The notes under the pieces: model-generated
Databases searched by the model: none
The model's input: only the letters and a program-made list of their open reading frames with translations
Told to the model about the DNA's origin: nothing
From: an uncultured virus (IMG/VR IMGVR_UViG_3300042315_000659)
Lineage: Duplodnaviria > Heunggongvirae > Uroviricota > Caudoviricetes
Strand: one strand, 5' to 3'
DNA: 20,000 bases
IMG/VR virus record: IMGVR_UViG_3300042315_000659
Program-made: the position numbers and the translations under genes
Shown: one piece after another, positions 6,044 to 20,000 of the stretch
How positions within the stretch are numbered: the stretch's first letter is position 1
Layout of the letters: the number at the start of each line of letters is the position of its first letter

Positions 6044-6241
6044 TTATTTGTCTATAGTTTTGATAAGAAAATAAATTAAATTTATCTTTTCTGCCGTCAG
6101 TGTTTTAAGTATCATTAAGATTTCTATTAATTTATCCTTAAGTTCTTTTTTAGTGGGTTCTGTGTCACTTGGTTCATAGATGAAAGTTTTAGCACTTCCA
6201 TCCTGTTCTATTTTAGTCAAAGTGTATTTTTCCATGATCAT
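6044..6241 (-). CDS. Small hypothetical protein
   Basis: 65-aa ORF co-oriented with its neighbours, with an upstream GAAGG. Confidence 0.55.
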   Translation of the reverse strand: MIMEKYTLTKIEQDGSAKTFIYEPSDTEPTKKELKDKLIEILMILKTLTAEKINLIYFLIKTIDK

Positions 6242-6264: not shown

Positions 6265-6720
6265 TTATCTTAATATATCTAGCCCTCGATTTCTGATTCT
6301 TTGAGCAAGGTCTTTATTAAATACTTTTGATTTTTTAATCACAGTAATCTGATTGCTTGGCCAGTATTCTAGCAGAAAATCAACGAGTTCTATTGAAGTT
6401 GTGTGTATTCTAGCTTCTTTGCTGTATCCTTTTAGTAATTGGTAAAAAAGAAATAGCCCACTAAGCAGGTCTTTTTCAATTACCCAAAATACTAATTTAA
6501 TTAATGTATTGCTAAGTCGCCAGTGTTTTAGGAGTTGGCATAGTTTTGTTTCCTCTAATTGCCAGTAACTGAAAAAATCTAAAACATTAGAGATTACTGG
6601 GTAGTCGCTTCTACTTACGAAGTCAGATACTAGAGCATCGATTGCTTCTAGAGATTGACACATCCCGATGGATGCAATCGATAATCCCTCTAATTTATAT
6701 CCTGAGATAATTTGTAGCAT
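6265..6720 (-). CDS. Hypothetical protein immediately downstream of the CRISPR array
   Basis: 151-aa ORF starting 64 nt after the last repeat. No motif recognised. Confidence 0.6.
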   Translation of the reverse strand: MLQIISGYKLEGLSIASIGMCQSLEAIDALVSDFVSRSDYPVISNVLDFFSYWQLEETKLCQLLKHWRLSNTLIKLVFWVIEKDLLSGLFLFYQLLKGYSKEARIHTTSIELVDFLLEYWPSNQITVIKKSKVFNKDLAQRIRNRGLDILR

Positions 6721-6783: not shown

Positions 6784-7105
6784 CTTGCAATCTACTTAAC
6801 AAGTCAAGCCGATTGTTACAAAAAAGGAGATTAAAAATGTATAACGATTATAGCACTTGCAATCTACTTAACAAGTCAAGCCGATTGTTACTCCCCTAGA
6901 TAGCGAGGATCGGGAATTTTGGCAATGCTTGTAATCTACTTAACAAGTCAAGCCGATTATTACGTGGCAACGACCTATCGCCCTATCTGAATTGGCAACT
7001 TGCAATCTACTTAACAAGTCAAGCCGATTGTTACAAAACCCACCGATCCAGACACTTTAGCGGTTCTGGCTTGCAATCTACTTAACAAGTCAAGCCGATT
7101 GTTAC
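6784..7105 (-). CRISPR. CRISPR array: 5 repeats of 36 nt, 4 unique spacers of 35-36 nt
   Basis: Repeat (minus) GTAACAATCGGCTTGACTTGTTAAGTAGATTGCAAG at 6784-6819, 6856-6891, 6928-6963 (2 substitutions), 6999-7034 and 7070-7105. Spacers at 6820-6855, 6892-6927, 6964-6998 and 7035-7069. Orientation inferred from the ATTGCAAG 3' end and the adjacent gene. Confidence 0.97.
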
Positions 7106-8778
7106 CCAGTCTCCCAGAGTGTAAGCTGCGTATAGCCTGCGTTGACTGTTTGCGCGGGTTGCGAGTGGATCGACCTTTTCCTTGTTTTTTTCTTGGGTGT
7201 CACTGGCTCGGAGGTCAAAACCAGTAAGGTTTCGAGGGTTTCTTCCCCAAGTAACAATCGGCTGGACTTGTCAAGTAATTCCTCCTGCGCTGATTCCTTA
7301 TCGAAATCCTTCAGAGGCTTAACTTCCCCGGTACAAGCCGGGTAGCTTCTTACGAAGTCTGCTTTCCCTAAGATGTTGATTGCGGCGGCCACATCTCTGG
7401 GTAAAGTACATCCACACTCTAAACATTTATGGGTGCGGGTTGATAAACTTTTTTTAACACGATTGCCACAGCGAGGACAATCCTGACTGGTGTAAGCTGG
7501 TTGAACCTTGATAAACTCTCGGTTGGGAGTTTTCATTTTCGTTTCAAGAAAACCGGTTAATTGTCCTAAACTAGCATCAGCAAAGGATTTATTTAATCCC
7601 CCTTTGGCTTTCGCGTTATTGCGTTCGTAGCCTTTACCGTCTTCTCTTTTTTTCGGTTTAGGTCGTCGCATTAAATTCTTTAAGTTGAGGTCTTCTACGG
7701 CTACAGCGCCATGATTTTTGACAATATCGGTACTTAGGGCATGATTAAATCCTTTGCGTTGTCTTGCTATTTTTTCGTGAGTTTTAGCAACTTTAGCACG
7801 AGTTTTAGCGAGATTTTTGCCGTCTTTATTTTCCCCTGCTTTATACTGTCTAGCGGTTTTTCTTTGCAGTCTTGCTAGTCTTTTTTGCTGTTTTCTATAG
7901 TATTTGGGCGGGTCAATTTGTTGGCCGTCGCTGGTACTAATTATATATTCTAGTCCTACGTCAATACCGATTGCTTTATCGGAATCAGGTAGATCATCTA
8001 CTTCAAATTCACCAAATAGACTTAGATAATATCCCGATGGGTATTTGATAATTGATACGGTAGAGGCTTTTCTGTCACCCCATCGAATGTCTAAAATATT
8101 GTTGATAATCTTTAAATCGCCTAATGTTTTACTACAGCTACCTATAGATATTTTATCCCCTTTTCTAACAGCGCAATTGCTGATCTCAGAATAAAGAGAT
8201 TTAATTTTATCTTCTTTTCTTTTAAATCTAGGAAGTTTTCTGTCTAAATTCTTTTTATCGAGTTTGGTGTAAGCTTTCCAGGAATCAGCAAGCTTTTTTA
8301 AAACCCCTTGGACAAAAGCCATAGGGATGTCCTTGCATAGCTCTGGACATTTTTCTTTTGTAATACAGCCACATAACCCAAAATAATTATCAGATTTTAA
8401 CCGCCGTTGAATAGGAATATGAACAGGATAAGAGTGACCTGCTTTTTGTCTTTTTTCTCTAGCTATCTGTATTTTAACTTTTTGCTTGCCAGTTAAATAT
8501 TTAGGGGTGTAAAGGGGATTAGGAAGGGATTTACCTTTTTCGTTTTTCAGGGAGTCAATAAATTGAGGTTTTTTAGCTAAACGACGTTTAACCCGTTTAA
8601 CTGGTTTTTTTGTTATTTTCTCAAGCTCGTCGTAATATTTATTAAGCTGATATTCCATCAGTAGCTCTAGTCCAAAATTCCAGACAGCTTTAAGCTCGTC
8701 CATCCAGCGATCAATATAGGCTCGCTGAGTGGCATTAAGGTTAAGTTTTATGTCCGCAATAGTTTTCTTGACTAGCAT
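7102..8778 (-). CDS. tnpB: TnpB / Cas12f-like RNA-guided nuclease (CRISPR-associated, type V-like), 558 aa
   Basis: N-terminal HTH_OrfB-like KLNLNATQRAYIDRWM..VWN, RuvC-I IGIDVG, bridge helix, RuvC-II VAVEDL, Zn ribbon CPRC/CLEC and RuvC-III RDVAAAINI. All three catalytic acidic residues are present. Confidence 0.92.
   Translation of the reverse strand: MLVKKTIADIKLNLNATQRAYIDRWMDELKAVWNFGLELLMEYQLNKYYDELEKITKKPVKRVKRRLAKKPQFIDSLKNEKGKSLPNPLYTPKYLTGKQKVKIQIAREKRQKAGHSYPVHIPIQRRLKSDNYFGLCGCITKEKCPELCKDIPMAFVQGVLKKLADSWKAYTKLDKKNLDRKLPRFKRKEDKIKSLYSEISNCAVRKGDKISIGSCSKTLGDLKIINNILDIRWGDRKASTVSIIKYPSGYYLSLFGEFEVDDLPDSDKAIGIDVGLEYIISTSDGQQIDPPKYYRKQQKRLARLQRKTARQYKAGENKDGKNLAKTRAKVAKTHEKIARQRKGFNHALSTDIVKNHGAVAVEDLNLKNLMRRPKPKKREDGKGYERNNAKAKGGLNKSFADASLGQLTGFLETKMKTPNREFIKVQPAYTSQDCPRCGNRVKKSLSTRTHKCLECGCTLPRDVAAAINILGKADFVRSYPACTGEVKPLKDFDKESAQEELLDKSSRLLLGEETLETLLVLTSEPVTPKKKTRKRSIHSQPAQTVNAGYTQLTLWETG
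7251..7345 (-). ncRNA. Putative tracrRNA / omegaRNA-derived scaffold inside the nuclease ORF
   Basis: Plus strand 7251-7277 GTAACAATCGGCTgGACTTGTcAAGTA matches 25/27 nt of the repeat in inverted orientation (anti-repeat). Upstream on the minus strand lie hairpin CCCGG-CTTGTA-CCGGG, linker GAAGTTAAG and stem CCTCTG...CAGGAGG. Boundaries are approximate. Confidence 0.8.
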
Positions 8779-8814
8779 GGCTTTTATGGATCGACCTTCT
8801 TTTATTCTTATTTA

Positions 8815-8844
8815 AATCTACCATAACCCTGCTAGAAATGTCAA
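8815..8844 (-). promoter_or_regulatory. Putative promoter of the nuclease/CRISPR transcript
   Basis: Minus strand TTGACA-18 nt-TAGATT with a TG extended -10. Part of a 32-bp sequence duplicated at 9264-9295. Confidence 0.6.
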
Positions 8845-8853
8845 GTAAGAAGT

Positions 8854-9222: not shown

Positions 9223-9263
9223 AACTTATAGTAGAAAAAGGTGCTAAACTATATTTGACTTAC

Positions 9264-9295
9264 TTAAATCTACCATAAGCCTACTAGAAATGTCA
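9264..9295. repeat. 32-bp direct repeat of 8812-8843
   Basis: ttaaatctaccataagcctactagaaatgtca vs ttaaatctaccataaccctgctagaaatgtca, 30/32 identical. Confidence 0.85.
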
Positions 9296-9430
9296 GATAA
9301 AAATTATTATCCTCTTAACGTCCGTACATCAGAATCAGAAGAGAAAAAGCTAAAAAACTACTGTAAAACCCGGAAGCGGTCAATAACCGATGTAGTCCGG
9401 GAATTGATTAGAAGTTTACCCGATGACTGA
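9290..9430 (+). CDS. Ribbon-helix-helix (CopG-like) regulator, 46 aa, below the ORF-track cutoff
   Basis: MSDKNYYPLNVRTSESEEKKLKNYCKTRKRSITDVVRELIRSLPDD: beta strand LNVR, helix, then S-I-T-D-V-V-R-E-L-I helix. Followed by a terminator-like hairpin. Confidence 0.8.
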   Translation: MSDKNYYPLNVRTSESEEKKLKNYCKTRKRSITDVVRELIRSLPDD

Positions 9431-10428: not shown

Positions 10429-10678
10429 GTTAGATTGTAGATATTGTTATTAACAATAGAACCCTTGATATATATAGCTTCTAGACTTTGTTAATACTGT
10501 TAACGCTATCCCCCGATATTATTTTTTTACGCTCTTATTGCTGAGACTGTCTTTCCTTTTTACCCTATTTTCTTTTTTCCTCTATACAGTATTAACAGCA
10601 TCAACAAAGTCTAGAACCTTTACAGGGTAACGGTTTCGATTGTTAATAACCCTATTAACAATCGAAATACAATCTAAC
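10429..10678. repeat. Palindromic non-coding element, copy 2
   Basis: Terminal inverted repeat gttagattgta/tacaatctaac, inner arms ttctagactttgttaatactgttaa / ttaacagcatcaacaaagtctagaa, and hairpin cgattgttaata-accc-tattaacaatcg. Confidence 0.8.
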
Positions 10679-11011: not shown

Positions 11012-11443
11012 TTATTTTACCACTCCTAAAGTAGGTACTCGATAAATTAGTACAGGCGGGTATTCATGAATATAGGTCTTCATCACGCCATTTATTGAAT
11101 CAGCATGGACGTACTCACCATCTCCCAGATAAATCCCCACATGACCATTTACTCCTGACTTATAAAACATCAAAATATCTCCTTTACACAAATCACCTTC
11201 AACTCTATCTAGTAACCGATCAAGGAATTTGACTAAGAAGTTATTCCGGGGAATCCGTTCGTAGTTTTCAATAATGAAATCATGGGGCAAGAATCCGACT
11301 TCAATCCCTACGCCAGCAATAAATCCTACACAATCGGTTCCAATCCCTTTAAGCGATTGACCATGAAACCAAGGAGTACCGAGCCATTCAAGAGCTTCGG
11401 TAACAATTTGATTACCCAAAGAATCGTTTTTTAGTTCGTTCAT
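11012..11443 (-). CDS. NlpC/P60 phage tail-associated peptidase
   Basis: ALEWLGTPW.H...GTDCVGF (catalytic Cys) and GHVGIY....YVHA (His residues). Overlaps the end of the tape-measure gene by 32 nt. Confidence 0.9.
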   Translation of the reverse strand: MNELKNDSLGNQIVTEALEWLGTPWFHGQSLKGIGTDCVGFIAGVGIEVGFLPHDFIIENYERIPRNNFLVKFLDRLLDRVEGDLCKGDILMFYKSGVNGHVGIYLGDGEYVHADSINGVMKTYIHEYPPVLIYRVPTLGVVK

Positions 11444-14400
11444 TTTGTGTATTTTCCCGTTCTTTCAATTGATTCAAACTATAACCCATATCATTCCGTG
11501 ATTCTACAGTCACGTTATTGGTGTTATTAATTACCAAAGACTGATTAGAGTTATTGTTATTTGAGGTTGTGGAGTAATTAGGCTTACCCCCGACAAATCC
11601 CCCATTAGCATAGTTCTTAATAGGAGCATTATTTCTGTAGTCTAGATATGCTTCTGTTTCTTTAGGGTTGAGAATTAATTCATCTTCATTGGCTACGATT
11701 AATCGAGGTTTTCGGCCTCCCGACATTGCTCGTTCGCGCTGAAAAGCTGAAATGATATTTTTCTCTATCGGAACATTAGCATCTCCAACTTTCCCACCAT
11801 CACTAAATAGGCTGAATCCTGTACCTAGAGAAAAGGCAGAAGCCGGAGCAGAAGCAAAGCTAGAGGCTCCTACACTACCAAGTGATCCAATCGAACCAAG
11901 TCCCCCAAGTCCTCCACTAAAAATCCCTGTTATTCCGCTAAGTAGTCCATTAAATAAGCCACCTCCGCCACCGCCACCAAAAATAGAGGAAAAGATGTTA
12001 CCTACTGGTTTAAAGATACTGTTTAGGGCATTAGTAAAGAAGTTGCCTACTGGCCCGATGATTGCATTAAATACTGACTCAAATGCCTGAGTTATTGGTT
12101 TAGTAAAACCATCGATAGCAGAAGTTAAAGCATCGATAGCAGGCTTGGTAATACCCTCAACAAATTTTGTCATGATATTTAATCCAAGACTACTAAAAGC
12201 CGATCCTATTCCTTTTCCTTCTCTAATATCAGAGAAAAAGCTTTCAGCTGCGCCACGATTTGGGGAAGCATCTAATGCTACTCGTTCTAATCTTAATTCT
12301 GCAAGTTTTTCCCATTCTGATCGGATATTAGCTACAAAATCAGCGTATTGTGGTAAGTCTTTGTAAGGTTCTAAATAATCCTCTAATTCCTCTTTTTCTT
12401 TTTGTAGGCTAATACGTTCGGCAAGGATAGCAGAATCATCAAATAAAGTCGGTCGAGACTGAAATTCTAGTTGCGTTCTTTGGATAGTTAAATCATTTAA
12501 CCGATCACGAATGCTCCTGACTGTATCTCTGGTTTTTCTAAATGATGCTTCTAAGGTAGCTACTCCCTGATTCTTGCCTAATTGTTCAATCGCTTGATCA
12601 AGAATTGCTACCTGTTTTTTAGCTAATTCAGCGTTTTTAGCTAAAGCATCAATACTATCTGTCATTTCTTTGATAAATTCAGGGGGGAGAGCTATACCTT
12701 TTCTTTGAAATTCTCCTAAGATTTCTTTTATTGCGTCGCTGTATTTTTGTTGAGCCTCAGCATTTAAAAGTAAAGTTCGTCGCTGGTCTTTTAGTGATTC
12801 AATCTGAGAGCGATATTGTCGAGAGACTTCCGTGGCACTCTTGTTAATTTCTTCTTGTACTGTCAGATACCCTTTAGAGTTGATAGTCAAATCAGCGACA
12901 TTTTCGGAAGCATCTCTTAAAGTGCGTTCTAATGCACGGGCATCTTCCTCTTGCTGCCGTCTAAATTTCATTGATCTGTCAAGAGCATTGTTTAGATTTT
13001 GTTGCTCTTCTAGCCGTCTTAAGAACTCATCAGCGTTTTGGTTGGCTGTTTCAGCGTTGCGAATTTGATCAGCCGCTGCGCCAAGATTACCTGTAGGAAG
13101 ATTAGGAACGGGCGGTAAATTAGGACTCTGGAAGTTAATCGGATTGTCTTTAGGAACCGGTGGTAAATCGGCATCCCAGAAATTATCTTGATTTTGATTA
13201 GGTAAAGTCGGTAATTGGGCTATAGGTGGAGGACTACTAAATTCTGGACCACCTTTTCCTTCTTTTGTTTCTTCTTTTGTTAAAACACGGGGAGGTTGTA
13301 AAACAGGAACAGAAGTGGGCAAGGGGACAGGAGAAGGGTTAGGGGCGGAGTCTTTAATGGATTGGCTAATTGCATTAGTAGCATTAGTTATTATTGTTCG
13401 ATTATTTAGTTGATTGCCGTTAATGTTTGCATAAGCAGTTACAATATATTCTTTCCCATTAATGTTTACCAGTCCAACGTTACCAATAACTTTAGAGTTA
13501 TTTCCAATTTTTCCGCCGATTTCATTATTGTACTTAAAATTTCTTGTTTGCCTCAGAGATTGTTCAGCTAATTGACTTGCAGGATTTTGATCTTTAATTA
13601 AAGACTGCATAGCTAACGTTACGTCTTGTGCTGTTGAAATGTTTGGAGTTCCACTGCCTGGTATATTTAAATACCTAGAAATAGTAGTGTTTTTATAACC
13701 TTCTTTTTTGGCTAATTCTGTAGCTCTGGTTAGCCCACCTAGCCGATCAATTAAAACATTAGTTGCCGTATTATCTGACTTTTCCAGCATTAACTGTATT
13801 AACTGTTCAACTGTTCTAACTTGATTGGCTTTTAATTGTCCGTGTGGATCAACCAAAGGCGATTTTATGGCGATAGCATCTTTTAAGGAAAGTTTTCCGC
13901 TTGCTATTTCTTTGGCAATCAAATCAGCAATAATAACTTTAATTGTACTAGCTGGCGACGCTGGGGGTGTTTGAGCATTTTTAGAATATACAGTTTCTCC
14001 GCCAACTTCTTGAACTAAAACAGATTGAATATTTTTTGGTAATCTGTTGGTGATTTGTTGCTGAACTGATGGAGAAGGGCTAGGGATGGAGTCTCTAGAA
14101 CCACCTTGACCGCCGCGACTTGTTTGTTTGCCGTCAAGATCGACAAACATTGAATTAGCTCCTGATTGAACTACCCAGTTAGCAATTTTTGCAATTTGAC
14201 TAGGATCAGTAAAAGCGATACAACCTGCGCTGCCAATCTTTAAATCGTCTAAATGGAATCCGATTTGTGATCTTCCAGTAGAGAATTTTGGTTCGGCTCC
14301 TATCCACGCAGGTCCAACAGTTCCTACTGGAATTTGACTGGGATTATAATTTCTAAACTGTCCAGAATTAAATTGTCGAAGATAGCGAGAAGCGTGGTTA

Positions 14401-17400
14401 GCGTCAATAGACCAATTACCGTCAGGAAGTGGAGTTTCACTGCCACGAATATTAGTTTTATTTGTGCCAATTGCAGACTGCGTTGATGGTCTTCCTGTTA
14501 CTCCTCCGATAACAGTATCAATTATTTTACCATCTTTTATTAAATCAAACCGTAGGATTTCTAGTCCTTCAGGAGTTTTTTGTCCAGAACGACGAACAAA
14601 AATAGTTGAGGAAGTAGAAGCCGATGGAGTGGAGGAAGGTTGTTCATATTTTTTTACAATTTCTTGATATTTTCTTGTTAAACTTTCTTTGCTTCTTTCT
14701 CTTTGCCCATATCCAGCACCAGGAAAAGCTGCCCATTCTTGACGAGCGGCAAATAAAGCACCCACCACATCACCTTTTAAAACTTCATCTAAAGCGCCTC
14801 TCATCATAATCCGGCTTATTGCCACTAAATCCTGAGATGTCGGTGAAAAATCTTGTAATCCTAATTTCGCTTTTTCTTCATCCCACGTCGCTTGCATTAT
14901 CTGGTATCTTCCAGCAGCGTCAGACCTTAATCCGTTTTTTGAAACTCTTTGTCGTGGATGATCTCTAAAAGAAACAAATTGTCCATGTCCAAATAAAGTA
15001 TTGTATCCTTCATTAGGCATATAATCAGTGCCTTCTGCATAGGCAACAAGATCAAGAAAAGCTCTGATTTGAGGATTATTCAAATATTGAGATGCTTGCT
15101 GTCCGCGAGGGGTTAGTGTAGAGGGTAGCGTGGAAGATGTGGGGAATGTGGAAAATGAAGCAGGCGGCGGCGGTAAAAACCCTCCCCCATTCCACACAGG
15201 AGCAGGGGCGAAATTACCAGGGGCTGGTAGTATCAAACCTTCCTTAGCTTTTCTAATTGCCTCCGCAGTTTCTTCTATACTTTTTACTAAGTCTTCTCCA
15301 GAAGTCTTAATATTTGGGGGAATAGCCACTAACTCAGAATTGATTAATTTAATTGGTTCTGGAAGTGTATTAAGATTTGTGACAATATCCTTGATTGATT
15401 GGGGAATAAAGCCTAATTCTTTATTGGTTTGTCGGATTAAATCAGCTAGAGTACGATTGAGGTCTTCCTGAGTCCGTTTAATATCTTCAATCGTTCTTAG
15501 TCTATTTCTTTCAGCCTCTTGCTGTTGCTCTTGTAAGTTACGAATATTTCTTAGAGTAGAGATATAGGAAGTTTCTATCTCCTCGGTTTGAGATTGGAAG
15601 GTGCGTCCGCGACTAGCAATATCAGCTTGTCCCTGTACAAATTCTAGGAAAATGTCACCTAATTCTTTACCAGCGTCGCTTGTACCGGGTATTAATAACC
15701 GGTTTTTGACTTGCTGCACCCTGATTCTATCGGTTGTATCTAATAGTTGATTTTGGGCATTTAAGAGGTTCTTATCGAGTTCTCTGACTAAATCACTGTA
15801 ACTTTCAGATAGGGAACGATTTTCTTTAAATGCTGACAGTTGAGCGTCTTCAATCTGTCTTCTGTAATCCTCAATCTGACGATTAAAGTCGATTATCTGA
15901 CGGTCAAGGTTGCGGTAGTAGTCTTGTAGTGATGTTTGTTGCTGTAATAGGTTAGCGCGGGCTTGTTCTAGGGCTAATCGGGTATTATCAACCTCTTGCT
16001 GAATCACATTAGGATCGTCTGACGCACTTTCTAATCGACGATAAGCCTCTCCTAATAATCTCTCTTGGTTGCGAACTTCTGATAAGGCATCCTGATAGGA
16101 AGCGGCTGGACCCCCAAAGGGTAATTGCCTTAAAGTAGCAATTCTCTCGTTGACATTGGCACCGACTATTGATGCTTGTCTGGCATTTCTTGCGCGCTCT
16201 CGTCTAGCGTTAGCAATTTCTAGTTCTGTATCAACAATTGATTTATCAATAGTTAAAGTTTGTCGTCTAATAGATGCTTGCTGTTTAGCTGTTTCTAATA
16301 CCTGTTTTAATTCAAAAGGCGCTTGATCTCCCAACTGTTGTAACCGATCACCTATAGCTTCTGGTGACACACTTCCCTGCTGTAATGCCGTTCTAAAATC
16401 TATTCCATTTAATTCAGGCATTAACTCAGTTATTCGCTGATTAATCAGATCTGTTAGGGTGTTTTGTAATTCTTTTTCTTTAGTTGCCAGTAATCCATTA
16501 AGCGAATTAAACTGATCCTTGACAATAGATAGGCTCTGTTCTCTAACGGTCAAATCTATTTCAAACGGCTTCAGGTTCCCAGATAAAACTTGTCGTTTAA
16601 TATCTGTTTCAGACAAAATAGTTCGTCCACTAGAGACAAATTCAATATTAAATAAAGCTCTTGCTACTTTATTTATTTGTTCTGTTAATCGTTGATAGTT
16701 GATTAAATTCTCTTTGACTGCTTCGTTATATTTTTCTTGCGATTCTTTTAATTTTCTAAGTTGAACTTCAGTAATTTCTAGCTGGATCCTAGCATTATCT
16801 TTTTGGGAACTAGAAGACCCTGGATCATCTAAAACTTTTTTAATTGCTGTAATTCTTTCTTCTGTAGATGCTATCTCATTAACAATAAGCCCAATTTGAG
16901 GAAAGTATTTTTCCGTTAAAGCTTGTATTTCTTGGTTTACTTTCGCAATTTCTTGACGAACAGATGTAGCTTTTTTAACGTCAGCATTTCCACTAGCTAT
17001 GATTTCATCTATCTTGAGGTCTTTCGCTTTTTGCCGCAATGTGTCAAGGTTACCCGTAAATTCGGTAATCTTTGTATCACTAAATGTGTCAGTTGATAAT
17101 TTTAAGATTTGTGTTGTATCACTTAGTCCCCCCGCAGTAAACTCTAAACTTTTATCTCTTTCTCTGTTGTTTTTAAATTGCTGAATTGCAGTTGCACTAT
17201 CAGTTATAACAGTAGAAGCTTTAGGTGTAGGTAAAGGTTTTTCTAGTAATCGTCTCAATTCTTGTAACGATTCTTGAGTTGATTTAAGAGATCGTTTAGA
17301 CTCTTCAGAGCCTGCGTTGATGTATTGATAAAGCCCTTTAAAAGCTTCCATTACACCAAAGACTAAAGCAGTCCATCCTAGCCCTTTAACAAATCCTATA

Positions 17401-20000
17401 CCTATTTGTGCAATTGATGCTTTTGTAGATGCTGCGGTAACTCCTAGTGCTTTTAGCCCTAACTTTAAAAGACCAAGCCTGTGTAACATTTGAACAAATA
17501 CACCCGATACAACAATCCCCATCGAAACAAAAGTAGCTACAATTTTATCTCCATGATCCTCTAAAGTCGTAAGTCCACTGATAACTGTAGGTATCCCTAA
17601 TTTAGCCACTTCTAATAAAGGTTTTCCCATTTCTACGCGAAGCAAGTTTAATTGATTTTCAAGTTTTGCAACTTGAGCAAAAGCCGTGTCATTAATTACA
17701 TTAATCCCTCCTGCTGATTCTAAAGTAGTTTGAGTTGCAAATTTCGACAAAAATTCATCTGATGCTACTGATCCAGACTCAATTAATTTAATAAATTCTT
17801 GAGCCGTTACACCATAAGCCCTAGAGGCAATCTGTAACGCGCCTGGCATTGCTTCACCTAACTGAGAGTTAAGTTCTTCCATTGAAACACGACCTTTACT
17901 AGCTATTTGAGTAATAGCTAGTAAAGCTCTGTCTTGCTGTTGAGAATTAGCACCTCTAGTAGCCAATCCTAATGTTATTCCTTCAAAAATTTTATCTTTT
18001 TGAAACTCTAGTGAAGTGTTCATTACAGCAGCACTAAACTGCTGATAGTTTTTGGCAGAAGACAAAAAAGATGTTCCAAGTTTATCTGCTTGTACTTTTA
18101 GCCTAGATAAAGCAGACTCAGCGTCGTCTGTGGTTAAGGATAAAGCCATTTCTAACCGCTCTGCTTCAATTGCTGTTTGAAAAGCTTCTTTTCCAAATTT
18201 ATTTAATAAACCAATAGTTGATTCAAGAATGTTAAAACCAACTATACCTAATATTGCGTTTCTTATTAGTCCAGCAACTTTCTTAATTGGTTCTGGTAAT
18301 TTATCAAGTGATCTTTCAACTTTATCAGCAATGGTGCTAAATTGCTCTAACTTACTTTTACTTTTAAAATCATCAATTTTATCAAGAATCCCTCCAATAT
18401 TAAAAACTTTTCTCCCTACCTGTTTAATATTTGTTTTTATTGTTTCACGGTTTAGGGGTTGCATTTGTTTGGCAGATTCTTCCATCTCCCATTGTCTAAA
18501 CTTTACTTCACTTCTTACATTACTAGGAAGTGCATTAAAAATTCTTTTCCCTGCTTTTTGGACATTAGTTTTTAAAGATTCACGGTCTAAGGATTTTACT
18601 TTCCCGACAAAATCTTTTATCTCTATCTCCTTAAATTTTAATTCAGTTTTTATTCCATCTAGTCCTAGTATTAAACCTCTTTTGATGTCACGACCAATTC
18701 GCATCATAACTTTTGATGGAGATTGAATCTCAAGTGTATCTCTAATTGTTTTCGGTAAGGTTAAAGCAATTTCCCGCATTTCCGCATCTAAATCACCAGA
18801 CTCGCTTTTAATTCCTATTTTTATCCCTTCTATAATGTCAGAGCCAAGTCCTTTAGTCTTATTTTTATTTGCTAAAACAGGATTTAAGCTTAAGATTAGT
18901 TTCTCTAAATTAGCCTCTATTAACTCTTTATTCCCACCAGAAGCTATTGATTTTGCCGATTGTTCTATAGCCTTTGCGAATAGAGTTTTAAAGCCTACTG
19001 TAGTAGTATCGACACCAGTTTTCTGAATTTGTTGAATTAGTCCTGATTTAATAGGAGATAATTCTTTTATACCAATTGTTTCTTGAGCAGTCTGAACTTT
19101 TTTTCCTGTACTACTTAAGTATCCTTTTGCAGACTGAACAGAAGCACCGACTCCCCCAGAAGCTATAGAAGTGGGCTGTCCAGCTTCTTTGAGTAATTTT
19201 AGTATGTCTTCTAAATCAGAAGAGGCTTGTTCTTTGGCAATTAATATTTCATTAGCTACTTTTTTTGCTTGGTCTAATTCACCAGAATCTATTAATGTTT
19301 TTAATTTTTGATAACGATCACTAAACCATTTTCTAATTGCGTCAGTTTGAGCCTGTGCTTTAACAATATCAGCAGATGCAGGATTACTTTGAATTAAAGA
19401 CTTTAGGTCTTTTGTCTGTTTAGACAGTGACACAAGTTCTTTTTCTTTAACACCTATATTGCTACTAACTTTATTGTCGGTTGTTATATTTTTAGACGGG
19501 TTATTTTTTGAACTAATACTAGGAATCTCAAACGATTTCTCTTCAGTGCCTAATTTAATGTTAGGAATATTGGTTGCTACTATACTATCAACTTTTAAAT
19601 GTTCTAAAGGTTTTGTAGCTTCTTTGACTTCTTTTAGCTGTGTTTCAATAGCTACTAATTCTCTTTGTTTTAATTGCAAAGATGACATATCAAATAGTTC
19701 TAATTGATCAGGAATATCTTCAATATTCTCCTGTAATTTATCAACTTCTTTATTCAATATCTTGATAATTTCTGCGTTTTCAAGGTAGTCAGAAGAAGAA
19801 TGTGACGCAATACCGGAAATAACTTGACTTTGCTTGGATACATCTGATGCCCCCATAGTTTGTTCTGCTAGTCTAATAGGGTCATTTTCTCCCATATAAC
19901 GAGAAAAATTATCTATTTGAGTAGTCCCGACCATTGACGGGGTAGCAATAGCTACCCCTTTTATATTTTCAATACCAGCTTGGTTTGCTAATCTAGTCGC
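11412..20000 (-). CDS. Giant tape-measure protein with embedded lysozyme, YkuD/Tlde1-like and serine beta-lactamase/PBP-like domains (5'-truncated)
   Basis: Tape-measure motifs LEIQSPSKVM and AITQIASKGRVSMEELNSQLGEAMPGA, long coiled coils, Gly-rich tail ending FSDGG/YANGG. The frame has no stop from 19934 to 20000, so the true start is outside the window. Confidence 0.9.
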   Translation of the reverse strand, partial: ATRLANQAGIENIKGVAIATPSMVGTTQIDNFSRYMGENDPIRLAEQTMGASDVSKQSQVISGIASHSSSDYLENAEIIKILNKEVDKLQENIEDIPDQLELFDMSSLQLKQRELVAIETQLKEVKEATKPLEHLKVDSIVATNIPNIKLGTEEKSFEIPSISSKNNPSKNITTDNKVSSNIGVKEKELVSLSKQTKDLKSLIQSNPASADIVKAQAQTDAIRKWFSDRYQKLKTLIDSGELDQAKKVANEILIAKEQASSDLEDILKLLKEAGQPTSIASGGVGASVQSAKGYLSSTGKKVQTAQETIGIKELSPIKSGLIQQIQKTGVDTTTVGFKTLFAKAIEQSAKSIASGGNKELIEANLEKLILSLNPVLANKNKTKGLGSDIIEGIKIGIKSESGDLDAEMREIALTLPKTIRDTLEIQSPSKVMMRIGRDIKRGLILGLDGIKTELKFKEIEIKDFVGKVKSLDRESLKTNVQKAGKRIFNALPSNVRSEVKFRQWEMEESAKQMQPLNRETIKTNIKQVGRKVFNIGGILDKIDDFKSKSKLEQFSTIADKVERSLDKLPEPIKKVAGLIRNAILGIVGFNILESTIGLLNKFGKEAFQTAIEAERLEMALSLTTDDAESALSRLKVQADKLGTSFLSSAKNYQQFSAAVMNTSLEFQKDKIFEGITLGLATRGANSQQQDRALLAITQIASKGRVSMEELNSQLGEAMPGALQIASRAYGVTAQEFIKLIESGSVASDEFLSKFATQTTLESAGGINVINDTAFAQVAKLENQLNLLRVEMGKPLLEVAKLGIPTVISGLTTLEDHGDKIVATFVSMGIVVSGVFVQMLHRLGLLKLGLKALGVTAASTKASIAQIGIGFVKGLGWTALVFGVMEAFKGLYQYINAGSEESKRSLKSTQESLQELRRLLEKPLPTPKASTVITDSATAIQQFKNNRERDKSLEFTAGGLSDTTQILKLSTDTFSDTKITEFTGNLDTLRQKAKDLKIDEIIASGNADVKKATSVRQEIAKVNQEIQALTEKYFPQIGLIVNEIASTEERITAIKKVLDDPGSSSSQKDNARIQLEITEVQLRKLKESQEKYNEAVKENLINYQRLTEQINKVARALFNIEFVSSGRTILSETDIKRQVLSGNLKPFEIDLTVREQSLSIVKDQFNSLNGLLATKEKELQNTLTDLINQRITELMPELNGIDFRTALQQGSVSPEAIGDRLQQLGDQAPFELKQVLETAKQQASIRRQTLTIDKSIVDTELEIANARRERARNARQASIVGANVNERIATLRQLPFGGPAASYQDALSEVRNQERLLGEAYRRLESASDDPNVIQQEVDNTRLALEQARANLLQQQTSLQDYYRNLDRQIIDFNRQIEDYRRQIEDAQLSAFKENRSLSESYSDLVRELDKNLLNAQNQLLDTTDRIRVQQVKNRLLIPGTSDAGKELGDIFLEFVQGQADIASRGRTFQSQTEEIETSYISTLRNIRNLQEQQQEAERNRLRTIEDIKRTQEDLNRTLADLIRQTNKELGFIPQSIKDIVTNLNTLPEPIKLINSELVAIPPNIKTSGEDLVKSIEETAEAIRKAKEGLILPAPGNFAPAPVWNGGGFLPPPPASFSTFPTSSTLPSTLTPRGQQASQYLNNPQIRAFLDLVAYAEGTDYMPNEGYNTLFGHGQFVSFRDHPRQRVSKNGLRSDAAGRYQIMQATWDEEKAKLGLQDFSPTSQDLVAISRIMMRGALDEVLKGDVVGALFAARQEWAAFPGAGYGQRERSKESLTRKYQEIVKKYEQPSSTPSASTSSTIFVRRSGQKTPEGLEILRFDLIKDGKIIDTVIGGVTGRPSTQSAIGTNKTNIRGSETPLPDGNWSIDANHASRYLRQFNSGQFRNYNPSQIPVGTVGPAWIGAEPKFSTGRSQIGFHLDDLKIGSAGCIAFTDPSQIAKIANWVVQSGANSMFVDLDGKQTSRGGQGGSRDSIPSPSPSVQQQITNRLPKNIQSVLVQEVGGETVYSKNAQTPPASPASTIKVIIADLIAKEIASGKLSLKDAIAIKSPLVDPHGQLKANQVRTVEQLIQLMLEKSDNTATNVLIDRLGGLTRATELAKKEGYKNTTISRYLNIPGSGTPNISTAQDVTLAMQSLIKDQNPASQLAEQSLRQTRNFKYNNEIGGKIGNNSKVIGNVGLVNINGKEYIVTAYANINGNQLNNRTIITNATNAISQSIKDSAPNPSPVPLPTSVPVLQPPRVLTKEETKEGKGGPEFSSPPPIAQLPTLPNQNQDNFWDADLPPVPKDNPINFQSPNLPPVPNLPTGNLGAAADQIRNAETANQNADEFLRRLEEQQNLNNALDRSMKFRRQQEEDARALERTLRDASENVADLTINSKGYLTVQEEINKSATEVSRQYRSQIESLKDQRRTLLLNAEAQQKYSDAIKEILGEFQRKGIALPPEFIKEMTDSIDALAKNAELAKKQVAILDQAIEQLGKNQGVATLEASFRKTRDTVRSIRDRLNDLTIQRTQLEFQSRPTLFDDSAILAERISLQKEKEELEDYLEPYKDLPQYADFVANIRSEWEKLAELRLERVALDASPNRGAAESFFSDIREGKGIGSAFSSLGLNIMTKFVEGITKPAIDALTSAIDGFTKPITQAFESVFNAIIGPVGNFFTNALNSIFKPVGNIFSSIFGGGGGGGLFNGLLSGITGIFSGGLGGLGSIGSLGSVGASSFASAPASAFSLGTGFSLFSDGGKVGDANVPIEKNIISAFQRERAMSGGRKPRLIVANEDELILNPKETEAYLDYRNNAPIKNYANGGFVGGKPNYSTTSNNNNSNQSLVINNTNNVTVESRNDMGYSLNQLKERENTQNERTKKRFFG

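Follow-up and report, generated by a model that had tools for sequence, protein, structure and literature searches.

The type V-U2 locus of the cyanophage vB_AphaS-CL131 is one of the closest described relatives of the CRISPR system considered here, which lies on the minus strand of 20,000 nucleotides (nt) of DNA from an uncultured virus of the Caudoviricetes (IMG/VR record IMGVR_UViG_3300042315_000659; this whole stretch is called the window, the features of the locus are all on its minus strand, and statements about published work refer to the accessible parts of the papers cited). The two loci share the effector family (38% identity), repeats of 36 nt, a downstream mini-array and the lack of adaptation genes (PMC6293099). 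The accessible text on CL131 reports no trans-activating CRISPR RNA (tracrRNA) and gives the array direction as unknown, whereas for the window a tracr-like RNA, an array direction, a protospacer-adjacent motif (PAM), a leader and a clamp motif can be proposed. Genes that overlap their own guide RNA are known from two other systems: TnpB makes its omega- or reRNA from its own mRNA, and in Cas12n (type V-N, formerly V-U4) the tracrRNA overlaps the open reading frame (ORF) of a protein with a disordered C-terminal tail, as in the window (PMC12216341; bioRxiv 10.64898/2026.03.27.714800). Cas12p, the 'Cas12 hacker' (PDB 9JFS), is the best fold match of the window effector and its best match by sequence among natural CRISPR proteins in the PDB (E 4.8e-26). 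It is likewise phage-borne, uses a tracrRNA and a CRISPR RNA (crRNA) held by a four-base pseudoknot with the end of the repeat, and has a disordered C-terminal domain (bioRxiv 10.1101/2025.01.20.633832). Cas12p recruits the host protein thioredoxin through a REC insertion, whereas the window effector carries a putative hook for the sliding clamp on its tail.

The effector gene of the window (7102..8778) encodes a protein of 558 amino acids (aa) that matches the models NF038192 and PADLOC Cas12u2, i.e. type V-U2 (C2c8/Cas12u2). It runs directly into an array of five 36-nt repeats (7105-7070, 7034-6999, 6963-6928, 6891-6856 and 6819-6784) and four spacers of 35-36 nt (6784..7105), whose crRNA is read in the direction of the gene. 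As the first-pass annotation of this DNA had correctly located, the TAA stop (7104-7102) forms nt 2-4 of repeat 1, leaving no intergenic space between gene and array. We consider it probable, at about 0.62, that the last ~260 bases of the gene are triply used, as a tracrRNA, as a host-type leader and as the codons of a tether that ends in a clamp motif. One transcript from the upstream promoter would be processed into an in-gene tracrRNA (~7345-7250), which would take hold of crRNAs of every kind by two contacts: an extended duplex with the anti-repeat, and a four-base pseudoknot at the 3' end of the repeat, the latter pairing being shown by covariation. The next 140 bp would act as a leader of the host type, at which Cas1-Cas2 of the host would integrate spacers at repeat 1, and the frame kept open through tracrRNA and leader would deliver a flexible tether with a clamp-binding motif at its end. 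To judge from a modelled interaction, this tether would presumably serve to keep the nuclease bound to the sliding clamp of the host where DNA is being replicated. The predicted targets are small plasmid-like replicons of the host with a 5' (A/T)T(T) PAM.

The RNA part of this reading rests on two pairings. The anti-repeat (7251..7277; 27 nt, 93% complementary), the predicted 3' part of the tracrRNA, forms a duplex of -41.4 kcal/mol that none of 100 shuffles reached, and lies 145 nt from repeat 1, as had been noted at first pass; this distance and the stop position are identical in all close phage relatives (among those listed; 38 loci were fetched). Only 3 of the 17 lineages have an anti-repeat that is both long and significant, and we therefore rejected it as a trait of the family. 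Near the predicted 5' end of the tracrRNA, a hairpin (7327..7342) presents a CUUG loop that can pair with the last four bases of the repeat, CAAG, in a pseudoknot. Of 22 V-U2 loci, 21 contain such a hairpin, and in each of these 21 the partners pair at four of four positions, across eight types of loop and repeat end; permuting the partners gave a mean of 9.0 pairings and reached 21 in 0 of 10,000 trials, for a count in which the repeat-end words were picked by hand, three of the 21 loci have no array, and the lineages are related. Since the same four-base pseudoknot has been solved in Cas12p, at nt 7-10 of its tracrRNA (bioRxiv 10.1101/2025.01.20.633832), the analogy suggests that the tracrRNA of the window spans ~7345-7250. 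The analysis of this hairpin also indicates that the 5' part of the protein tail is shaped by RNA structure. A search of Rfam returned nothing credible (best of five matches, E 0.086). V-U2-like genes with a single repeat-like end and no array were observed in L044, L046, L073 and L161 (and L149), and the pseudoknot partner is retained in L044, L046 and L161; such loci are possibly unsplit, omega-RNA-like relatives, or else decayed arrays.

How the transcript is divided is a separate question. According to the first-pass annotation, mRNA, tracrRNA and pre-crRNA are one transcript that can fold in cis into a natural single guide, with the last ~80 aa of the protein read through the RNA scaffold. 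The part concerning a common transcript agrees with what was found. Contigs from RNA runs cover the region at 7070-7512 (X1), 7076-7281 (X3) and 7076-7331 (X6), and none does so in X2; the first spans the tail and repeat 1, which speaks for presence in RNA libraries only, as these contigs (4 runs were compared, out of 22 from 10 studies that contained small shares) carry no strand, ends or level, and may include DNA. Where contigs stop at 7076, the assembly probably broke at the repeat, and stretches without coverage carry no weight as evidence. Consensus scans gave no promoter in 7106-7250, where a promoter for the array alone might have been sought, and this fits transcription from the gene's own promoter; a joint precursor of tracrRNA and array has been reported for type V-K (PMC9938897). 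The best consensus promoter upstream of the effector is at 8815..8844 (10/12 match, extended -10; a consensus match only), and a near-copy is found at 9296-9267. These belong to a duplicated promoter-like segment of 45 nt, which precedes both the effector gene (8807-8851) and an ORF at 9222-8854 (9259-9303) that encodes 122 aa and has no known family.

The single-guide part fares less well. It would have tracrRNA, the 145-nt linker, repeat 1 and spacer 1 work as one unsplit RNA, like the omega-RNA of TnpB, with the newest spacer guided in cis, and we regard it as unlikely. When 7360-7034 is folded by itself, the anti-repeat does pair with repeat 1 (z -3.7), a pairing that co-transcriptional folding would be expected to reach first, and both the RNA-library contig across this region and the array-less relatives with a single repeat end are compatible with an unsplit guide. 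However, in the equilibrium fold of the full transcript the partner of the anti-repeat is repeat 4 (0.94) and hardly ever repeat 1 (0.006), and the linker folds no better than its shuffles (z -0.06; 90 of 200 equally good) and is explained as leader DNA; the tracr region alone shows no folding above shuffles either (z -0.88). Moreover, a free tracrRNA is needed anyway for repeats 2-5, and Cas12p, the closest solved relative, co-purifies with tracrRNA and crRNA. On these models, a split tracrRNA and crRNA fits better than an unprocessed single guide, which is possible for repeat 1 yet unneeded. The scaffold claim holds in part as well: the tail after INILGK472 measures 86 aa, but the predicted scaffold is confined to ~7345-7250 and the 145-nt gap is unstructured.

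This gap, which has the length of a host leader, appears instead to carry information in its DNA. The array had been described as leaderless; comparison of 7106-7250 with host leaders contradicts this, as both motifs of host cas1-linked leaders occur in the gap, in register and at the spacing seen in the host. We examined 52 loci from the host family (the family of genome G403) and extracted 44 leaders of cas1-linked arrays, many of which share a motif at about -50 from the first repeat and a related one at about -130. In the window, the candidate leader embedded in the coding sequence (7106..7245) has its proximal motif, GCGCAAAC, at -50 (7148..7155), with word and distance as in the Microcystis-type I-D leader, and its distal motif at about -130 (7224..7235; score 11.4), where it comes closest to the leaders of DR3-like host arrays. 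In type I-D, motif I (GCCAAA), located ~50 bp before repeat 1, promotes acquisition by the I-D Cas1-Cas2 (PMC6607411); the phage word resembles it and is found in coding DNA. A two-motif model, trained on 31 non-redundant host leaders and on no phage sequence, ranks the start of repeat 1 first among 39,720 window positions (20.2, against 15.6 for the next site), and places the array start within the top 5% of positions in 14 of the 18 array-bearing loci (L150, L158, L162 and L206 fall outside). Similarly, when 22 V-U2 loci were scored with a matrix built from seven host leaders, the top-scoring site fell at -53..-48 in 14 of them (chance 0.047 each). The proximal motif is unchanged in 35 of 35 close relatives, and its distance is kept across lineages that share only ~36-50% protein identity. 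It is read as differing amino acids; L160 and L205 have it in another frame, and in L040 and L041 it falls between genes. As far as such comparisons go, it is hence a feature of the DNA. The -10-like box present in 12 of the 31 host leaders was absent from the corresponding phage site in a consensus scan.

The spacers themselves are variable, with 93 clusters in 23 distinct V-U2 arrays. Protospacers were searched in small contigs of genomes of the host family, and 42 of the 89 phage spacers of ordinary length match nine loci, mostly contigs of ~5-12 kb, that had been picked because other spacers had already hit them; a plasmid collection contained no match for an array of 14 spacers. In the 5' flanks of the 42 protospacers, position -2 is T in 35 cases, position -1 is T in 27, and position -3 is A or T in 34, from which a PAM of 5' (A/T)T(T) is predicted. 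It is this T bias at the 5' flank, together with the pseudoknot, that sets the crRNA in the direction of the gene. The targets are thus predicted to be small plasmid-like replicons of the host, one of which has genes, by eye, for a recombinase-like protein and for a large protein of the replication type. The matches of several phage spacers overlap or lie close together within one plasmid-like contig (L309:1015-1130, with other clusters; also L311), as would be expected of priming near a cut site.

Where new spacers come from is less straightforward. Neither cas1 nor cas2 was found in any of five relatives searched, four of which are at least 90% complete, and the system is therefore adaptation-less and its acquisition must act in trans, as had been supposed at first pass. 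Several observations count against acquisition from a host leader in the form proposed above. Of the 16 host I-D spacers that could be mapped (of 234), 14 have G at -3, compared with 5 of 42 phage spacers (p 1e-7), and the median length of host I-D spacers is 37, against 35 for the phage (p 9e-9). We therefore disfavour the complete host I-D Cas4-Cas1-Cas2 as the integrase; a type III-linked or Cas4-free integrase fits better. The lengths differ less from those of DR3 arrays, although the difference persists (median 37, p 0.011); just 3 of 119 DR3 spacers have targets, too few for a PAM. The spacer-order polarity that the first-pass annotation had suggested looking for is not apparent in these arrays, the first and the last spacer each being shared in 8 of 21 arrays, and repeat decay is uninformative (first repeat mutated in 2 of 22 arrays, last in 3). 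In addition, the two leader positions were chosen by eye after the sequences had been viewed, and the loci compared are related and not independent. Degenerate distal repeats, seen by eye and uncounted in CL131, L040 and L043, do fit a leader on the gene-proximal side.

The lack of polarity is probably due to recombination between arrays, and it could be asked whether recombination supplies most of the spacers. In that case they would be exchanged among phage, host and mobile arrays, or joined at the repeat end by a transposase-like reaction, and the leader motifs would be an inherited relic. Shared spacers do stand in shuffled contexts, and 31 nt of spacer 4 (6855-6820) are identical, at an offset of a few bases, to a spacer of another V-U2 array (L040:333-363); a related spacer is also visible in the host array L317. 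In L028 (4397-4470), and past the final repeat of L021, the phage array continues as a repeat or trailer of an L040/L041-type V-U2 locus, which suggests recombination between two V-U2 systems with different repeats, and a RecT-like gene is present in the window. However, such exchange does not account readily for the diversity of the spacers and for a consistent PAM unlike that of host I-D spacers, nor for a proximal motif whose sequence and distance are conserved as described above. Of the alternatives weighed here, we consider it the least probable, and favour integration at a functional leader.

A further observation concerns the far end of the array. In 12 of 35 relatives, the DNA past the last repeat (6783) resumes downstream at 6178 (seven relatives), 6275 (four) or 6029 (one), all on the minus strand; L007, L011, L013, L017, L034 and L036 are among them. 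The left end of these deletions falls exactly at the 3' end of a repeat, and each of the three right ends is preceded by a PAM-like triplet that has T at -2 (chance ~0.03). Integrase events left half-finished would be one possible origin, and self-spacers that recombination has resolved another. An ORF directly after the array (6265-6720, minus strand; 151 aa, no family match) is lost in these deletions, and a host spacer matches 6648-6682 within it.

The third use of the sequence is in the protein. The multiply coded tail, codons 473-558 (7105..7362), is predicted to be disordered, with pLDDT scores (predicted local distance difference test) below 50 at residues 485-529 and 537-558. Close to its end, codons 551-555 (7114..7128) spell QLTLW, a motif of the beta-clamp type with a K/R-rich cluster before it. 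Clamp-binding peptides follow the consensus Q-L-S-L-F/L and are found on flexible C-termini (PMC3971601); in the window, as in many homologs, the last residue is W instead of F or L. A clamp-type pattern is present in the last 30 residues of 63 of 76 long-tailed homologs, compared with a mean of 0.43 and a maximum of 4 in shuffles (the 76 are the 93 homologs P0002-P0094 less five without a recognisable zinc finger and 12 with tails shorter than 60 aa), and a basic cluster precedes it in 59 of 67. None of 26 ordinary TnpBs has the pattern, and none of the 31 host leaders encodes it in any frame. Among alleles of the 35 close relatives, those in the tail comprise 10 synonymous, 9 non-synonymous and no nonsense changes (p 0.005 against neutrality), and non-synonymous and synonymous polymorphism (pN/pS) amounts to 0.046/0.166 in the tail (ratio 0.28) and 0.056/0.183 in the core (ratio 0.30); by these figures, which are counts of alleles and not of events, the tail is under purifying selection. 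When residues 519-558 were modelled with DnaN from a genome of the host genus, the score was 0.62, against 0.00 for the best of three controls, with a mark that was reached by 116 of the 157 solved pairs and by 2 of the 215 mismatched ones; the runs agree in at least 45% of contacts, the pLDDT of the partner is at least 42, and the interface comprises residues 548-555. The modelling indicates that the tail ends in a likely hook for the replication clamp of the host. The DnaN of genome G001 looks non-cyanobacterial by eye, and we take G001 to be, probably, a mixed bin.

These results run counter to the idea that the tail is a dispensable by-product, as had been considered possible at first, and yet some lineages have lost it. 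A tail tolerated as read-through would resemble that of Cas12n, which is reported to be dispensable (PMC12216341; bioRxiv 10.64898/2026.03.27.714800), and QLTLW would then stem from constraint on DNA or RNA, or be an inherited motif without function. The low pLDDT agrees with this, as does the loss of the tail by nonsense or deletion in CL131, L041 and L164. In CL131 (L039:3905-4163), a premature stop closes the annotated gene and a frameshift comes after it, while the hairpin, the proximal motif and the QLTLW codons persist in the DNA. The same explanation draws on the overlap of the motif codons with the position of the distal leader motif in L040 and L206, where some constraint at the DNA level is possible. 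It does not explain, however, why the motif, in versions of five and of six residues and with varied codons, stands in frame at the ends of tails that measure 77-178 aa, why host leaders do not encode it, why the tail is under selection, or why the motif itself forms the interface in the DnaN model, and we therefore judge tolerated read-through to be quite unlikely. It should be noted that part of this evidence also weakens the clamp reading: the ORF lacks the motif in 5 of 17 lineages, among them that of the cultured phage CL131 (11 repeats), and so, by this comparison, it is not essential everywhere; the peptide pattern was written after the sequences were seen, and the related loci are not independent. 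Clamp-peptide complexes are among the solved structures, and the DnaN model may owe its pass to a memory of them. The tail can thus be called conserved, in contrast to the expectation of a by-product, but not indispensable in every lineage. A tether with a clamp-type end remains the reading that we prefer.

This reading also accounts for the stop inside repeat 1, since the final 23 nt of the leader contain the peptide motif, after which reading goes on until the first stop. Of 17 lineages, 10 have a stop whose end falls inside repeat 1 (+4 to +29), two have one that ends 5 nt before it and five have one further upstream, and the first codon of the motif is located 22-31 nt before the repeat in 10 of the 12 motif-bearing lineages. 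Its exact position at nt 2-4 is specific to the lineage of the window, relatives having the stop elsewhere in or near repeat 1, and from this comparison appears incidental: what is kept is the motif at the end of the leader, from which the frame continues to the next stop.

Concerning the identity of the effector, it scores 371.5 bits on the curated C2c8 model NF038192 (cut-off 350), and its best PADLOC match is Cas12u2 (E 2e-126). The RuvC triad (D273/E362/D462) and the four-cysteine zinc finger are intact, and both are invariant across 38 homologs. Three other assignments were rejected. The protein passes the broad guided_TnpB model, but as a TnpB of IS200/IS605 it reaches only 175.3 bits against a cut-off of 425, and it is accompanied by an array; Cas12n (C2c9) is a different family, its PADLOC counterpart Cas12u4 matches more weakly (E 3e-50), and its A-rich PAMs differ from the T-rich one predicted here; and Cas12p shares only 21% identity in the fold match and has a GTN PAM. 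By sequence, the system is a member of V-U2, with RNA-guided DNA cleavage predicted from protospacers that have a 5' PAM. At residues 63-122 (~8592-8413), the effector has a low-confidence REC insertion, roughly where Cas12p binds thioredoxin.

The phage origin of the locus is apparent from its neighbours, genes for phage tail, RecT-like and anti-repressor proteins, and from its relatives, phage contigs of up to ~90 kb. The host would be Microcystis, judging by host-array spacers, 13 of 353 of which match the window (at most six mismatches); the arrays concerned carry the repeats DR1 (I-D) and DR3 (III-B), with cas1d confirmed, and both are listed as repeats of M. aeruginosa (PMC4428289). Elsewhere in the window, an ORF at 11412-19934 (minus strand; 2840 aa) probably encodes a tape-measure protein with lysozyme- and peptidase-like inserts, by eye, and two related AT-rich intergenic blocks with internal inverted repeats (1595-1830 and 10431-10672), 8.8 kb apart, are possible origin or regulatory elements.

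If the effector does bind the clamp, CRISPR interference would be tied to the replication fork. A wider reading, which we offer tentatively and hold to be less probable than not, is that V-U2 systems were born from a TnpB gene whose frame came to extend through both its guide RNA and a captured leader of the host. In this reading, ~260 bp of triply coded tail would allow the phage to hijack two host machines: Cas1-Cas2 of the host would write new spacers right behind the stop codon, the T-rich PAM being set by the effector, and the sliding clamp would bring the nuclease to replicating plasmids, so that it would be an effector coupled to replication. The RNA of repeat 1 may also be left uncut, and the newest spacer would then be expressed at once. 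How type V arrays without cas1 and cas2 gain spacers has usually been answered by assumption, and the window offers a host leader that can be pointed out base by base inside the coding sequence of an effector. Synonymous recoding can separate the roles of DNA, RNA and protein, which makes the acquisition question directly testable, and the predicted tracrRNA limits, the PAM and the removable tail amount to a recipe for the first functional test of V-U2. Our literature search found no experimental paper on this subtype, no account of a Cas12 gene that carries a host leader within its codons, and a clamp motif only as a putative feature of cyanobacterial TnpB and on no CRISPR effector; most subscription journals and the supplements of preprints were outside that search.

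In summary, several elements of this locus are already known from other systems, namely an in-gene tracrRNA under a disordered tail, in Cas12n and TnpB, and a putative clamp motif in OrfB. The accessible text on Cas12n (PMC12216341; bioRxiv 10.64898/2026.03.27.714800) makes no mention of an embedded leader or a clamp motif. In the phage system Cas12r (bioRxiv 10.64898/2026.04.20.719267), also of type V, gene and repeat are 15 bp apart, the targets are mobile elements of other kinds, and a reliance on host adaptation has been proposed, but Cas12r needs no tracrRNA, and host adaptation is argued there from PAM and lengths and not from leader motifs. In CL131, a premature stop cuts the tail that is intact in the window. 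A putative Q-L-S-L-F/L motif was listed in 2014 for the OrfB (TnpB) of cyanobacterial IS200/IS605 insertion sequences, near residue 390-400 among the rows listed, and OrfB is outside the nine families for which peptide binding was shown (PMC3971601); unlike that of OrfB, the motif of the window belongs to a CRISPR effector, where it stands at the tip of a tail whose codons also appear to encode a tracrRNA and a leader. The novelty of the window would therefore lie in its architecture, in which a tracrRNA, a host-type leader and a clamp-type peptide are apparently written in one stretch of DNA.

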